Origin: Leptolyngbyaceae cyanobacterium
GTDB taxonomy: Bacteria; Cyanobacteriota; Cyanobacteriia; Phormidesmidales; Phormidesmidaceae
DNA length: 64,000 bases
Direction: 5' to 3'
Assembly (NCBI GenBank): GCA_965263355.1
Contig: CBDHHL010000032.1
Span: 1,760,001-1,824,000 of the forward strand
Positions 9,476 to 15,488 of this stretch are shown piece by piece. A program made the position numbers and the translations under genes. Under the pieces are notes generated by a model, which saw only the letters and a program-made list of their open reading frames with translations, did no database searches and was not told the DNA's origin. Position 1 is the stretch's first letter. Every line of letters begins with the position of its first letter.

Positions 9476-10374
9476 TCAAAGGAGATTCTTTTTTATAACG
9501 CCTGACGTTTCCTGTAATTGCTGCACTAACGACCAAAATATATCAAAATTAGGAATCTGTTTAAGTTCAACCCTGGCTCAATGGCTACGGAGATAGCTTA
9601 AAACACTATTTGTATGGCATTTAACATGGACTTTGGTAGCACCATTGGCAACAGTACTTTGATCCAGGGTTACAGCTTGAAGTTCTGACCAGGGCAAGGT
9701 TTTATTGTTATAAGTGATACCATCAGTACTGAGGCTTAAGGGACCAAACTCGATGGTGTCTCCCTGTTGATAGGCTTGGGTTATTTGTTGCAATTTGTTA
9801 GGAAAGATTTGAGCTTTAACATGGTCGCCCACTTCGTCAAAGCCAGAGACAATCCGTTCGCCCGTTGTCAGTTCAAACTGATATGTGTGTAAGATTTTGC
9901 CACCTTTCAGGCTGGAGCGCATTGTTCCCGTTTGAGACTGTTCAGTCAGCATACCGCCTACTAACAGTGTTGCCAGGGGTATGGCAATATTTTGATCGTA
10001 ATAAATGTCTCGTTTGGTTTGATAGATGTTTTGAATATCGCAGTACAGGATGGCACGATACTGGTGGCGTTTGACAGTTACTAAGCCATAATCATAGAGA
10101 ATTTGACGATCGTGTCGTCGGCCCATGGCTTCATAGGCACCGACTAAACCAATTAGGATGCATAGGCTGAACAGGACATAGTAGGGGGCAGCTGACTAAG
10201 GTCTACGGACTGTGGTGAGCTGAGTACAACCAATAGGATAAAGCTTAAAAAGACGATACCAATGCCTCCGACTGCTAGGGTGAGGCTGATAAATGGGTTT
10301 TTCAGTAAGGGGTAGCGATAGGTGCCGAGGGTATTGCCAAGGGGGTATTGCTGTTCTAGTTGGTCTAGTGTCAT
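9476..10374 (-). pseudogene. DUF6585-like membrane protein, frameshifted and carrying a nonsense codon
   Basis: One extra C in the C5 run (10184-10188) joins ORF 10153-10374 to 9578-10126 via YYVLFSLCILIGLVGAYEA; after TGA (9578-9580) the frame continues ARVELKQIPNFDIFWSLV to a stop at 9476. Confidence 0.7.
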
Positions 10375-10547: not shown

Positions 10548-10682
10548 CTAGTGGTCTGGCAAGCCTAAGATTTTCGGTAAGATGGTTAAAGAGCCAAGAG
10601 TCTAAAGGGATGAAGAGTCACTCTTTACCCGTCACCCTTTATCAGTAACCAACCCGAATTTTTAGCTTTGACGATGCATTAG
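10548..10682 (+). mobile_element. 135-bp MITE-like element, copy 2 (family A)
   Basis: CTAGTGGTCTGGCAAG...TTTGACGATGCATTAG; the terminal TTAG overlaps the stop codon of the TPR ORF. Confidence 0.8.
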
Positions 10683-10990
10683 TCGCTGGGTTCATTATTC
10701 TCTTGAATAGACTGAATTTTCTGAAGAGCATAGTCCTTTAAAGGGGCAACGTTAATCTCTTCGCCAATGGTAGCAGCAGCTTGTAGACTACTGATTGCTT
10801 GTTCGGTTTGGTTAAGGGCTAAGTAGGCATCAGAAATAAACATATATAGGTTTCGTCCCTGGCTATAGCGATCTCCGATTTGACTATAGACTGTTTGAGC
10901 AGTTTGATAGGCTTCCAGGGCTACGTTGGGGTCTTCCTCCAGGCTGCCAATGGCCTGAAGCGTATTGGCTTCGCCGAGGCGAGCACCCAC
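10679..10990 (-). CDS. C-terminal TPR cap of the NB-ARC/TPR protein (detached by the scrambled junction)
   Basis: Begins with the repeat segment GARLGEANTLQAIG, then degenerate TPR-like helices; no independent RBS seen. Confidence 0.7.
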   Translation of the reverse strand: MGARLGEANTLQAIGSLEEDPNVALEAYQTAQTVYSQIGDRYSQGRNLYMFISDAYLALNQTEQAISSLQAAATIGEEINVAPLKDYALQKIQSIQENNEPSD

Positions 10991-11031
10991 CTGGCGATAA
11001 ATGGCGTTCTCGATGGCGTTCTCGTAGTTTT

Positions 11032-14000
11032 CTAAGGCCTCATCTCTGCGGTCGAGAAATTGCCAAGCTTGGACGCTTCGAGGCCAATGGCGATTCTCGA
11101 GTTCTCGTATCTAAGGCGTTTGAGAAATTTCGCTTTGAGCGTATTGGCTTCGCCGAGGCGATCACCCACCTGGCGATAAATCTCGATGGCGTTCTCGTAG
11201 TTTTCTAAGGCCTCACTACTTCGTTTGAGAAATTGCAGCACGTCGCCAATGGCTTTGAGCGTATTGGCTTCGCCGAGGCGAGCACCCACCTGGCGATAAA
11301 TCTCGATGGCGTTCTCGTAGTTTTCTAAGGCCTCATCTCTGCGGTCGAGAAATTGCAGCACGTCGCCAATGGCTTTGAGCGTATTGGCTTCGCCGAGGCG
11401 AGCACCCACCTGGCGATAAATCTCGATGGCGTTCTCGTAGTTTTCTAAGGCCTCACTACTTCGTTTGAGAAATTGCAGCACGTCGCCAATGGCTTTGAGC
11501 GTATTGGCTTCGCCGAGGCGAGCACCCACCTGGCGATAAATCTCGATGGCGTTCTCGTAGTTTTCTAAGGCCTCACTACTTCGTTTGAGAAATTGCAGCA
11601 CGTCGCCAATGGCTTGGAGCGTATTGGCTTCGCCGAGGCGATCACCCACCTGGCGATAAATCTCGATGGCGTTCTCGTAGTTTTCTAAGGCCTCACTACT
11701 TCGTTTGAGAAATTGCAGCACGTCGCCAATGGCTTGGAGCGTATTGGCTTCGCCGAGGCGATCACCCACCTGGCGATAAATCTCGATGGCGTTCTCGTAG
11801 TTTTCTAAGGCCTCATCTCTGCGGTCGAGAAATTGCAGCACGTCGCCAATGGCTTTGAGCGTATTGGCTTCGCCGAGGCGAGCACCCACCTGGCGATAAA
11901 TCTCGATGGCGTTCTCGTAGTTTTCTAAGGCCTCACTACTTCGTTTGAGAAATTGCAGCACGTCGCCAATGGCTTTGAGCGTATTGGCTTCGCCGAGGCG
12001 AGCACCCACCTGGCGATAAATCTCGATGGCGTTCTCGTAGTTTTCTAAGGCCTCACTACTTCGTTTGAGAAATTGCAGCACGTCGCCAATGGCTTGGAGC
12101 GTATTGGCTTCGCCGAGGCGATCACCCACCTGGCGATAAATCTCGATGGCGTTCTCGTAGTTTTCTAAGGCCTCACTACTTCGTTTGAGAAATTGCAGCA
12201 CGTCGCCAATGGCTTTGAGCGTATTGGCTTCGCCGAGGCGAGCACCCACCTGGCGATAAATCTCGATGGCGTTCTCGTAGTTTTCTAAGGCCTCATCTCT
12301 GCGGTTGAGAAATTGCAGCACGTCGCCAATGGCTTTGAGCGTATTGGCTTCGCCGAGGCGAGCACCCACCTGGCGATAAATCTCGATGGCGTTCTCGTAG
12401 TTTTCTAAGGCCTCATCTCTGCGGTCGAGAAATTGCAGCACGTCGCCAATGGCTTGGAGCGTATTGGCTTCGCCGAGGCGAGCACCCACCTGGCGATAAA
12501 TCTCGATGGCGTTCTCGTAGTTTTCTAAGGCCTCATCTCTGCGGTCGAGAAATTGCAGCACGTCGCCAATGGCTTTGAGCGTATTGGCTTCGCCGAGGCG
12601 AGCACCCACCTGGCGATAAATCTCGATGGCGTTCTCGTAGTTTTCTAAGGCCTCATCTCTGCGGTCGAGAAATTGCAGCACGTCGCCAATGGCTTTGAGC
12701 GTATTGGCTTCGCCGAGGCGATCACCCACCTGGCGATAAATCTCGATGGCGTTCTCGTAGTTTTCTAAGGCCTCATCTCTGCGGTCGAGAAATTGCAGCA
12801 CGTCGCCGTATTTCTTCAAAACATCAGCGTATATTCTCTTATCCTCATTTTCGGGAATCCAGCCCCATAAAGCTACCTCGTATAGCTCATGGCGGACCTG
12901 ACTATAGCCCCGTAGCTGTAACACCATATCCAAACTGCTGTAGCGGTCTTCCTCATCCGTATCCTGCCATAGCAAATTCAGGGCTTCGGTGCGTTGCTCT
13001 AACTGGCAGAGATGATAGAAAAGTTCTTTATAGGCAAATGTTTCTGCCAGCTGAGTGCTCGGTCCCAAATATGGCTGCAGCTGGGGCAAATAAAACTTGA
13101 CAGCCTTCTGATGACCATCATTATTTCCATTCCGGTTCAAATATCGCTGAATTAGCGGCTGAAACTGATACTGCCAAAGGCGCTCACCATTAATGGAGTC
13201 TTTTTGGGCCACCAGCAACGATCGTTTGGCCAGCTGCCGCAGTTGCTGATCACTTATCGTGTCGTTTACCATCGCTTGGGCCGCCTTCAGGGTAAACGGC
13301 TGTCGATAGACACTGCTATATTGCAGCACATGCCGTAGCGTTTCCGGTAGCCGCTCTAATGTTGCCTCTAGCAGTTTGGCAATGCTGGTTTCCGGTTGAC
13401 CGCGATGTAACCCAATCAGGTCAAACAGATTCATCCCGCTAATAGTAGTGAGATTATTCACATGGGGGTCGTCTTCGTCGTCGTCAAGCAGCCAGCCCGC
13501 TGACAGTTTCAACAATAGGGGATGCCCCTCTGCTGCATCCACCAGCGTTTGTAACTCTATTTCATTGCCTACTATGTCAAGCTTTTGCAATAAGCTCACT
13601 CCAGCCGGGGTGCTTAGACCATCTACTTGTTGCCATTTACAATAAGGCCGCACATTGGCAGGCAGCTTGGGCTCCTCTCGACTAGTGACTAAAACCTTAC
13701 TAGCACTTTTGCTGCCCAACCACCCTAATAAAAATGTCTCATAGCCGTTATCAATCCAGGTACCATCAGATTGCAGTAATGTTTCCAGGTTGTCTAAAAT
13801 CAGCAAATAGCAACCGACTGACAGTTGATTAATTACCCGATCCGCAAGTTCCTTATTACCTGTCTGGTCATCTACTGCCAGATTAAAGTGAGCTAAAAAC
13901 CATCGCCCCCAGATTGCAAACGAATAGGGCTGGTTAAACGAAATGGCCAGGGTAAATTTTATTCTATGTTCTACTCTTTGACACTGCTCCTTAATGATTT

Positions 14001-14193
14001 CTGCCAAAGCCGATTTGCCAAAGCCCCCAGCACCTTTAAGGCCGATCAGCTGTATGGCATCCTTTGTTAGCCAGGTGTGTAAATTTTCCAGCTCAGTCTC
14101 TCGCCCCTGCCAGTGACGGGTATCGGGACGAAAGTTGGGGCTAATAAAATCATCCGGGTTTAACGTTGGCTGGACCGCTCCAGACGACTCTAG
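11032..14193 (-). CDS. NB-ARC (STAND) ATPase + TPR repeats, NLR-like; frame open back to the TAG at 14194-14196
   Basis: WQGRETEL, Walker A GAGGFGKS (14011-14034, upstream of the ORF-track start at 14007), Walker B LLILDNLE, VLVTSRE, GHPLLL, then 14 x 40-aa TPRs. Confidence 0.9.
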   Translation of the reverse strand, partial: LESSGAVQPTLNPDDFISPNFRPDTRHWQGRETELENLHTWLTKDAIQLIGLKGAGGFGKSALAEIIKEQCQRVEHRIKFTLAISFNQPYSFAIWGRWFLAHFNLAVDDQTGNKELADRVINQLSVGCYLLILDNLETLLQSDGTWIDNGYETFLLGWLGSKSASKVLVTSREEPKLPANVRPYCKWQQVDGLSTPAGVSLLQKLDIVGNEIELQTLVDAAEGHPLLLKLSAGWLLDDDEDDPHVNNLTTISGMNLFDLIGLHRGQPETSIAKLLEATLERLPETLRHVLQYSSVYRQPFTLKAAQAMVNDTISDQQLRQLAKRSLLVAQKDSINGERLWQYQFQPLIQRYLNRNGNNDGHQKAVKFYLPQLQPYLGPSTQLAETFAYKELFYHLCQLEQRTEALNLLWQDTDEEDRYSSLDMVLQLRGYSQVRHELYEVALWGWIPENEDKRIYADVLKKYGDVLQFLDRRDEALENYENAIEIYRQVGDRLGEANTLKAIGDVLQFLDRRDEALENYENAIEIYRQVGARLGEANTLKAIGDVLQFLDRRDEALENYENAIEIYRQVGARLGEANTLQAIGDVLQFLDRRDEALENYENAIEIYRQVGARLGEANTLKAIGDVLQFLNRRDEALENYENAIEIYRQVGARLGEANTLKAIGDVLQFLKRSSEALENYENAIEIYRQVGDRLGEANTLQAIGDVLQFLKRSSEALENYENAIEIYRQVGARLGEANTLKAIGDVLQFLKRSSEALENYENAIEIYRQVGARLGEANTLKAIGDVLQFLDRRDEALENYENAIEIYRQVGDRLGEANTLQAIGDVLQFLKRSSEALENYENAIEIYRQVGDRLGEANTLQAIGDVLQFLKRSSEALENYENAIEIYRQVGARLGEANTLKAIGDVLQFLKRSSEALENYENAIEIYRQVGARLGEANTLKAIGDVLQFLDRRDEALENYENAIEIYRQVGARLGEANTLKAIGDVLQFLKRSSEALENYENAIEIYRQVGDRLGEANTLKAKFLKRLRYENSRIAIGLEASKLGNFSTAEMRP
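11132..12807 (-). repeat. tandem array of 14 near-identical 120-bp units encoding 40-aa TPRs
   Basis: Exact 120-bp period visible in the DNA; variation only at DRRD/NRRD/KRSS, D/A and K/Q. Confidence 0.97.
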
Positions 14194-14649
14194 CTAATCG
14201 GTTTTCTGAACATAAGTAATATTTTGAGTACCGCCAATGTAGTTGGTGCTGTTATTTCCGTCGATCTGGTTAATATAGCCCGTAGCGTTGTCGTGGATAT
14301 TTTGCACAGTCGAGCTATTGTCGTTAACCTTGCCAAGGTTAATTTCCTGACCCAGCAGCGTTAGTTCATTAGCAAACTGCGGATCTTCCCGCATGGCAAT
14401 CTTCAAATAATCGGAAACGGCCTCCAGGTCTTCTGTATTACCTTGACTGGCTTCTAACCGTTTTGCTGCATTTACCGCCGGAGCGTTGCCCGTCAGTCGC
14501 GTCATAATTTTCTGGCGCAGCTCCTCCATTTTACCCAGGGCCGCTTCGGTAAATTTCTTGGCTGTTTCCCCTGCCGCCGTTTCCAAAAATTTCTTAAATG
14601 CCAACTCTGTGAGGGCTGATGCTGTGAATGTAGCGACCGGTCCGACCAT
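14194..14649 (-). CDS. Bell-like helical effector domain with C-terminal amyloid-like (BASS-type) motif
   Basis: ATG at 14649 preceded by GAAGGT; TASALTELAFKKFLETAAGETAKKFTEAAL...AMREDPQFANEL helical domain; tail NDNSSTVQNIHDNATGYINQIDGNNSTNYIGGTQNITY; in frame with the downstream NB-ARC. Confidence 0.7.
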   Translation of the reverse strand: MVGPVATFTASALTELAFKKFLETAAGETAKKFTEAALGKMEELRQKIMTRLTGNAPAVNAAKRLEASQGNTEDLEAVSDYLKIAMREDPQFANELTLLGQEINLGKVNDNSSTVQNIHDNATGYINQIDGNNSTNYIGGTQNITYVQKTD

Positions 14650-14754: not shown

Positions 14755-15327
14755 TTATTGCCATGTTTCGATATCTGGCCGTAGGGGGTCCTTTAGTTGA
14801 AAGCCACCGGACATCCATGACCAAAAGTCAGGAGCGTGTAGAGCCATTCGTCTGATCGCGTAATCTGGCAAGACAAAGACCATTAGATACGGCAGTTGAA
14901 GGGTAAATACATCACGAACCCAGTTAAGATTTACTAAAAATGGCGGATATTCTCCCTTTTTACCAATCGAATTTTCTAATCCTTGCAAGATAAATACTAG
15001 CTTTTTGCCGTTGGCCTGCTTGATAACGGTTGGTAGTACAGCTTTAATTTCGGGTATCAAATAGCGGAGCTGAGGATTGTTGAACTTTAAGGTTTCAAAA
15101 TGGATGTTGTGGCAGCGTGGATGGTGTTGAAGATGATCGGCAATACCATTTATGTCCCAGGAGACTATATTCCAGGATAAACTGACTGCGATAAAGCCTA
15201 GGGTGAATCCCTCTGAGAAATCAGCAAAAACAGCTAGTTCATTGAGTGTTTTTACATTTAATTTTAAAAACTCAGTAGATAAAGAAGTGTTTAATCTCTC
15301 TTGCATGTGGTGATGATTTTGCCTCAC
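14755..15327 (-). CDS. isolated 'APDFW'-type N-terminal domain of cyanobacterial TPR proteins (probably truncated)
   Basis: LNWVRD...LPDYAIRRMALHAPDFWSW motif; ORF ends shortly afterwards, without TPRs. Confidence 0.55.
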   Translation of the reverse strand: MRQNHHHMQERLNTSLSTEFLKLNVKTLNELAVFADFSEGFTLGFIAVSLSWNIVSWDINGIADHLQHHPRCHNIHFETLKFNNPQLRYLIPEIKAVLPTVIKQANGKKLVFILQGLENSIGKKGEYPPFLVNLNWVRDVFTLQLPYLMVFVLPDYAIRRMALHAPDFWSWMSGGFQLKDPLRPDIETWQ

Positions 15328-15488
15328 AGAGCAAATTTTATCAAACTTCCGTTTCTTGAATTCGTTGAACGTTGGGTAACTATAGATATCAGCTACCTCA
15401 GTCTATTCCTTCTTTGTCCATCCCCCCCCACAGAGATCACTATGTCCCATACAATGAAATTAAACCCAGTGCGAACACCAGACAGGCC

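Follow-up and report, generated by a model that had tools for sequence, protein, structure and literature searches.

How can a bacterial immune receptor be produced when its reading frame lacks a start of its own and is separated from the gene in front of it by a stop codon? The question is raised by a minus-strand locus in a 64,000-nucleotide stretch (hereafter the window) of a Leptolyngbyaceae cyanobacterium genome, positions 1,760,001 to 1,824,000 of contig CBDHHL010000032.1. There, a short open reading frame (ORF) for a putative effector, with a Bell-like domain and an amyloid-like tail, ends at an amber stop, and the same frame runs on into an NB-ARC domain and tetratricopeptide repeats (TPRs), the parts of a NOD-like receptor (NLR). 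Similar junctions recur in related cyanobacteria. We hypothesize that the stop is read through by a near-cognate tRNA, and the comparative evidence makes such programmed readthrough the best explanation and a likely one.

The junction in the window

The effector ORF (14649-14194, minus strand) encodes 151 amino acids from an ATG and ends in ...QKTD-TAG. The TAG lies at 14194..14196 on the minus strand in the context GAT TAG CTA GAG, and beyond it a further 1053 codons follow in frame without a stop, running through the NB-ARC domain and the TPRs. No in-frame ATG, GTG or TTG occurs in the 53 codons preceding the Walker A motif. The original prediction had described both the continuous frame and the missing start, and the ORF reading bears it out on each. 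Its wish to see the TAG confirmed in raw reads was satisfied in part: assembled contigs from three of four runs span the codon with zero differences, but these are assemblies rather than raw reads; they derive from two samples of a single study, and the window sequence may itself have come from them. The amber stop at 14196-14194 is genuine, and a one-off nonsense mutation does not account for it. All named close relatives are cyanobacterial, and all three stop codons terminate long ORFs in the window (17 TAA, 14 TAG and 12 TGA). A scan of the locus for promoters and terminators gave signals close to background.

The effector combines a helical Bell-like domain with a C-terminal tail rich in N, Q, G and T. 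Among its 14 relatives, 13 are 147-155 residues long and end at almost one alignment column, and Asp is the final residue in 11 of 14 aligned rows (query included). Bell domains are helical bundles of about 100 residues with a hydrophobic N-terminal helix, and the AlphaFold2 model of the effector is correspondingly all-helical over residues 10-105, with low confidence at residues 112-147. Effector relatives are mostly 130-165 residues long, and this 151-residue protein lies slightly above the stated Bell range of 120-140. The original prediction had called the effector a Bell protein; size, helices, tail and pairing behaviour fit, but profile and fold searches gave no match. Specifically, the scans returned no Pfam, NCBIfam or PADLOC family and no Bell profile, Foldseek with the effector model found nothing at E 0.001 and no HeLo-type match, and no PDB sequence matched under E 0.05. 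In the search for a fold match to HeLo, MLKL 4HB or Babybell the best VIA Z was 5.2, and the ESM Atlas returned just unnamed cyanobacterial clusters plus a HetE-N lead at 12%. We treat the effector as a candidate Bell protein by architecture only. One close relative, a 92%-identical effector copy (L003:88-345), is interrupted after residue 84 by a transposase-like ORF.

The tail (residues ~110-151, 14197..14322, minus strand) is a candidate amyloid signalling motif. It has the composition of the bacterial amyloid signalling (BASS) motifs, tails of about 25 residues rich in G, N, Q, V and I, and it aligns to the N-terminal motifs of receptors encoded by two-gene relatives. When it was scored against 26 such receptor-side motifs, 7 of the 26 scores were equalled by at most 3 of 200 shuffles.

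Conservation of the stop in related cyanobacteria

Effector-like loci were gathered from metagenomes and from two sets of cyanobacterial genomes, of 401 and 201 members, with the better-scoring matches being fetched. This yielded 99 distinct full-length Bell-like ORFs. By a strict Walker A pattern, a nucleoside triphosphatase (NTPase) followed closely behind 71 of them and not behind 28, although the pattern missed in-frame cases among the latter (L016, L023). The 71 paired loci comprise 26 in which the NTPase has its own ATG, 40 in which it continues the effector frame (frame 0, the window locus included), four in frame -1 and one that is broken; all classes other than own-ATG have no ATG 40 or more codons ahead of Walker A. 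Frame 0 thus accounts for 40 of the 45 pairs without an ATG (binomial p 1e-14, uncorrected for kinship).

The two main classes differ in how the effector ends. In-frame loci (n = 40) use TGA in 35 cases, TAG in five and TAA in none, and the base after the stop (+4) is C in 35 of 40. The own-ATG loci (n = 26) use TAA in 11 cases, TAG in ten and TGA in five, with +4 C in 6 of 26. Fisher tests give p 7e-6 for the stop codon and 2e-7 for +4 C, both uncorrected for kinship. One locus filed as own-ATG, L057, is truly in-frame with a late ATG.

Pooling all distinct junctions gave 108, with 98 TGA, 10 TAG and no TAA, in a pool that is biased in that its loci are related and near-duplicates are included. 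The next codon is CTG in 45, CTA in 39 and one of 13 others in the remaining 24. CTG or CTA therefore follows in 84 of 108, and a conserved in-frame leaky stop with a conserved 3' context is what readthrough would be expected to leave. A pyrimidine stands directly ahead of the stop in 101 of the 108 junctions, and most of the upstream ORFs end in Asp, Phe, Pro or Asn.

Is a sense codon ever found in place of the stop? A stop-free sequence pattern, derived from known loci and with many of its matches overlapping them, gave 41 matches, spread over 36 of 401 genomes, and its reversed control gave four. Of 40 matches read, 37 are preceded by TGA or TAG, and the other three, which have a sense codon, are not part of long frames; where a long coding frame flanks the match, a sense codon occupies the stop position in 0 of 36. 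Among the listed matches of a 90-genome family search, 14 span effector and NB-ARC and all have a stop (13 TGA, and one TAA in a two-gene locus). The original prediction had looked to related cyanobacteria for conservation of the stop, and the in-frame TGA or TAG at 108 junctions provides it.

The RNA element and selection on the linker

The stop is followed by a candidate readthrough signal (14168..14193, minus strand in the window) that consists of the +4 C, an 8-nucleotide spacer (14193-14186) and, from +12, a hairpin (14185-14168) of five contiguous pairs around a GCGG loop. This layout is shared by the family: CTG or CTA usually stands behind the stop, the spacer is 8 nucleotides in all, and a hairpin of 5-7 base pairs begins at +12. 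Over 33 aligned junctions, 98% of cells in the upper five-pair stem are paired, and four of its five pairs show two-sided changes. The covariation score was reached by 0 of 500 shuffles, a control that kinship among sequences can beat. A lower stem able to pair with the stop itself is possible in 74% of cells, with a two-sided change in one of six pairs, and was left out of the covariance model built on the element. In the window the hairpin is the centroid fold, with a z of only -1.3, and the element is the sole strong match of the model, by construction. Rfam holds no family for it; one chance match (E 3.2) fell in 13900-14500, and none in six related loci.

Selection acts on this region at two levels. 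In 18 close pairs, the codons from the hairpin to the first ATG, GTG or TTG have a ratio of nonsynonymous to synonymous change (pN/pS) of 0.29. Over codons 1-13, synonymous changes amount to 17 per 186 sites, compared with 88 per 264. By this comparative measure, the linker, which has no standard start, is under protein-level selection and the hairpin is under nucleotide-level selection. Downstream coding constraint, synonymous suppression and covariation of a 3' structure are together the pattern expected of readthrough.

Some TGA-C junctions (L072, L074, L076, L078, L082, L087 and L095) have CTG CTG GTA or CCC TCT GGT downstream and no standard hairpin; these are possibly a second element type. 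A REP-type (repetitive extragenic palindromic) repeat was considered and rejected as the nature of the element, which is low-copy (1-8 model matches per genome) and always coding. CGTC repeats are not listed for cyanobacteria in the available text of PMC3733652.

A missing motif copy and a candidate frameshift variant

A repeated tail, present on effector and receptor alike, is the mark of BASS pairs according to the available text of Dyrka et al. (10.1101/2020.01.06.895854). Taking a local score of 35 or more as a copy, we find the effector tail a second time at the N-terminus of the receptor in 25 of the 26 own-ATG loci (all but L057), and in none of the 40 in-frame and none of the 4 frame -1 loci. 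The window locus scores 16, so that no motif is carried by a separately encoded receptor there. Because it lacks a motif copy of its own, an in-frame receptor gets the motif only via translation from the effector start.

Close receptors can differ in architecture. L253 has a TGA with the hairpin, while L254 has a TAA, an ATG and a motif copy; L257 and L266 show the same kind of switch between close relatives. True fusions without a stop also exist among relatives (P0046, P0071), and a further protein, P0035, known as protein only, has Glu at the stop position followed by a linker-like stretch. A word-index search for longer effector relatives gave a single protein, which has the domain C-terminally, whereas the full scan did reveal fusions.

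The four frame -1 loci have their own signature. In each, the effector ends A_AAA_AAG TAA (L101:~1205-1214, L103:712-721, L105:658-667 and L108:~1153-1162), and the NTPase is open in the -1 frame without an ATG. In bacteria, A_AAA_AAG is the standard site for -1 slippage. These loci are therefore candidates for programmed -1 frameshifting that would yield the same fusion, and they suggest that a fusion made as a minority product has been selected for independently, though in four loci only. No more slip loci were found in 301 genomes with a narrow pattern that had no positive control.

Proposed mechanism and alternatives

We propose that most ribosomes would terminate at the TAG or TGA and release the short effector, a Bell-like domain with its amyloid-like tail. 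In a minority, a near-cognate tRNA would be accepted at the stop, aided by the weak UGA-C or UAG-C context and by the hairpin 8 nucleotides on, to give an effector-tail-NB-ARC-TPR product. The residue inserted would be expected to be Trp, Cys or Arg at a UGA and Gln, Tyr or Lys at a UAG. Sensing of a ligand by the TPRs, presumably a phage protein, would lead the receptor to oligomerize so that its tails nucleate an amyloid fold, and free effector, which by construction bears the same tail, would then be recruited and kill the cell. With one gene in place of a two-gene pair, both the motif match and the ratio of the products would be fixed. The fusion protein, the inserted residue, amyloid templating, killing and an antiphage role are proposals drawn from sequence comparison; the output logic of ligand-driven oligomer, amyloid templating and membrane damage is modelled on Bab/Agp. 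The original prediction had proposed a readthrough-made pair of short effector and full-length receptor, which the comparative evidence strongly supports across the family, and to which it adds TGA as the usual codon (98 of 108), the conserved hairpin, modular partners and the -1 variant.

Several observations weigh against this hypothesis. In four in-frame loci (L072, L074, L076 and L082) an ATG stands 33 codons ahead of Walker A, and GTG or TTG is present in the linker of many in-frame loci. Taken one sequence at a time, the hairpin is weak (z -1.9 to +1.0), and several in-frame loci lack this form of it (L078, L082, L087). The loci share ancestry and some were located with models derived from the set itself, broken copies exist (L038, L060, L121, L132, L234), and the TPR array of the window copy is frameshifted as assembled. 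A full-length receptor that carries a toxic domain must itself stay inactive. Finally, CTG, the commonest codon behind the stop, could serve as a non-standard start.

This last point is the basis of what we consider an improbable alternative, in which ribosomes re-initiate at a CUG or CUA just past the stop, aided by the hairpin, and make a separate receptor without effector or motif. Downstream hairpins can indeed aid weak starts, and purifying selection on the linker is compatible with either route. However, CTG is far from universal, with CTA or one of 13 other codons in its place in 39 and 24 of the junctions, and re-initiation needs neither an in-frame upstream ORF nor the exclusion of TAA. 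Moreover, a receptor without the motif would be unable to signal in the manner of two-gene receptors, and the four slip loci indicate selection for the fusion. Adenosine-to-inosine editing of the mRNA, with the stop held in the lower stem and converted to a tryptophan codon, would explain the choice of stops in another way, in that TAG and TGA are one change from UGG and TAA two; the lower stem can form in most cells of the alignment and folds in some copies. Yet its pairs rarely change on both sides, the edited base would have a different position in TAG and TGA, the +4 C is left unexplained, and the stop context would not fit the TadA motif. We regard editing as very improbable.

Two further explanations are the least probable of all. 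A simple nonsense mutation that silences an all-in-one receptor, the alternative that the original prediction had held open, would gain from the stop-free fusions among relatives and from the finding that bacterial genes often carry in-frame stops transiently (PMC7918605, in its available text). At the level of the family, however, a recent nonsense allele is refuted by conservation of position, context and hairpin, which are alike in 108 junctions across NB-ARC and NACHT clades, and by the lack of any sense codon where long coding frames lie on either side. Cognate recoding by selenocysteine, by pyrrolysine or by an altered genetic code is equally remote. A hairpin directly behind a UGA resembles a bacterial selenocysteine insertion sequence (SECIS), but each of the three stops ends long ORFs in the window. 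In five related genomes bearing the element, SelA was found in none and tRNA-Sec above the cut-off in none; in five with TAG elements, PylS above the cut-off was likewise found in none. Matches of a loose tRNA pattern for suppressor anticodons were no more frequent than in the control.

If stop-codon readthrough is indeed at work, a wider and more doubtful possibility is that the stop, C, spacer and hairpin form a dedicated readthrough cassette, free of selenocysteine and pyrrolysine machinery, that moves between effectors and receptors and acts as an immune control point. In such a cassette, infection or stress that weakens termination would produce more armed receptor, wiring translation fidelity into immunity, and cyanobacteria would have reached the design of two products from one gene twice, by readthrough and by -1 frameshifting.

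Spread and modularity of the element

The covariance model matched in 22 of 57 and 34 of 150 genomes of two orders. All 60 of the 78 matches that were read have a stop, with 56 TGA (three one base off register) and 4 TAG; 57 of these 60 loci (11 from training, 49 not) have 100 or more open codons downstream, and 42 have a Bell-like ORF in front. Ten further matches were fetched, and eight had the same layout. None of 20 two-gene loci was matched by the model. All seven named plasmid loci were matched, five of them located via protein likeness and two via DNA likeness; they include pCC7120gamma of Nostoc PCC 7120 and three plasmids of Acaryochloris marina MBIC11017, and annotation splits all seven into two genes. 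The exact element pattern had no match in viral contigs.

The element joins a range of partners. Upstream, TIR_2 (four loci) and alpha/beta-hydrolases (three loci) can replace the Bell-like domain, and downstream partners besides NB-ARC include NACHT, CHAT, NA-iREase1 and a CHASE2 sensor. In L240, L122 and L287 it links Bell-like ORFs to CHAT, NA-iREase1-NACHT and CHASE2 proteins. The TIR of L120:940-1506, L133:952-1506 and L157:2-346 ends at the element with the amyloid-like tail absent, and an NTPase follows it in L120 (NACHT by Pfam) and L133. Such tail-less TIR fronts (L120, L133) suggest that the junction also supplies a homotypic domain. In L171:885-1409, a 175-residue upstream partner without a Pfam family precedes a TAG, the hairpin and an NTPase; we presume it to be similar to an effector-associated domain.

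The receptor of this copy and its neighbours

The window receptor is STAND/NLR-like (STAND, signal transduction ATPases with numerous domains). Its NB-ARC domain (13558..14103, minus strand) matches PF00931 above the cut-off (E 2.5e-9, 37.2 bits, cut-off 23.5) and includes the Walker A motif GAGGFGKS at 14034-14011; identity to the nearest NB-ARC relatives for which DNA is available is 27-44%. The TPR sensor array (11132..12807, minus strand) holds 14 copies of a 120-bp unit (40 residues) with 97% matches. It is followed by a garbled unit (10991..11131, minus strand) in which many small deletions break the frame, and then, in a shifted frame, by the last TPR and the C-terminal cap (10679..10990, minus strand; TPR_12 at E 9e-5, below cut-off). 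The original prediction had taken 10679..14649 as a single frame, and this is right through NB-ARC and most TPRs but fails at 11131-10991, with a stop at 11032.

Is this copy then dead, with an inherited junction in front of a frameshifted receptor? Besides the lost frame, the transposase-like insertion in the close relative L003 and the broken copies elsewhere argue for it. However, the product as assembled still holds 13 complete TPR units, and both flanks of the garbled unit are identical to contigs, while the assembly shows indel errors at other sites. Contigs of three runs match 10660-10982 without differences, and no contig piece among those listed spans 11131-10991. Within the garbled unit, 71% is tiled by array 8-mers or longer with unit order kept (controls 0-7%). 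Single-base indels in contigs relative to the window at 15421 and 15456 imply that the assembly carries indel errors, and since the garbled unit is also unspanned, an assembly error is the likelier cause. The frame loss is thus probably an assembly error and possibly decay, and we consider a dead copy unlikely.

Just upstream of the effector, a 190-residue ORF (14755-15327, minus strand) has no Pfam match and falls with Atlas clusters of 163-189 residues from cyanobacteria; we take it to resemble the N-terminal region of TPR proteins from cyanobacteria. Past the receptor lies a multi-copy repeat (10548-10683), to which many divergent run contigs align, and then a DUF6585 gene (9480-10374, minus strand) spread over two frames with an in-frame TGA at 9578-9580, through decay or assembly error.

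Significance and comparison with known systems

If the readthrough hypothesis is correct, these junctions form a large family of natural, structure-assisted bacterial readthrough sites where few cases are recorded, and they offer natural variants for dissecting how the bacterial ribosome skips a stop. They would also represent a third amyloid immune architecture beside the two-gene and all-in-one forms and explain receptors seemingly without an N-terminal motif; many cyanobacterial NLRs would then be annotated with a false start and their effector domain omitted. The copy on pCC7120gamma of Nostoc PCC 7120 makes direct testing possible.

The full-text literature searched, which excludes most subscription papers, gave no account of this junction. 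Readthrough and stop codons in such a context are absent from the available portions of the BASS, Bab/Agp, Kaur, Kibby and 2026 STAND papers and of a 2026 amyloid review, and the accessible text of a genome-wide study of in-frame stops (PMC7918605) mentions neither cyanobacteria nor NB-ARC.

The closest known systems are the Bell/BASS-NLR pairs. The available text of Dyrka et al. (10.1101/2020.01.06.895854) describes cyanobacterial pairs that, as here, consist of a short helical protein with a G/N/Q-rich C-terminal tail and an adjoining NB-ARC/NACHT-TPR receptor; most relatives have an acidic residue close to the N-terminus, and TIR, hydrolase and CHAT serve as alternative effectors. The main text contains no instance of readthrough, read-through, stop codon or frameshift. 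Precisely this kind of pairing is seen in 25 of 26 own-ATG members of the window effector family. The window receptor, in contrast, has neither start nor motif, and a single frame with a stop replaces the pair. Bab/Agp of E. coli, in which the amyloid motif of the sensor converts a Bell-type effector and causes abortive infection, is the experimental model for the output proposed here; it differs in having two genes, a TPR-GreA/B-PIN sensor and a shorter Babybell domain, and readthrough is unmentioned in the part of the paper available (10.1101/2024.11.07.622273). In the effector-associated-domain systems of Kaur et al. (PMC7159879, PMC8195603), one domain shared by effector and NTPase core lets them meet. 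The TIR copies of L120 and L133 would gain a shared domain by fusion, whereas the Kaur et al. systems are separate genes, described without the words readthrough or stop codon in the text available.

On the side of recoding, the available text of two papers (PMC7026636, PMC13517186) gives UGA-C, UGA-CUA and 3' structures from +12 as viral and eukaryotic readthrough signals and puts leaky UGA in bacteria at a few per cent; the table in the review has Q-beta coat and B. subtilis SacB as its only bacterial entries. Stop context, 8-nucleotide spacer and 3' structure are shared with type II UGA-CUA sites and with the gag-pol junction of Moloney murine leukaemia virus (structure from +12), as would be the output of a short abundant product and a long NTP-using one (PMC13517186, PMC7026636). 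Here, however, the genes and ribosomes are bacterial, the hairpin is short and simple, UGA and UAG both occur and the proposed function is immune. A bacterial SECIS likewise places a hairpin shortly past an in-frame UGA, but the junctions described here include TAG versions, lie in an inter-domain linker, and come with no SelA or tRNA-Sec found and no Rfam match. The junction combines immune components that are already known with an established type of recoding, in a widespread and undescribed manner.

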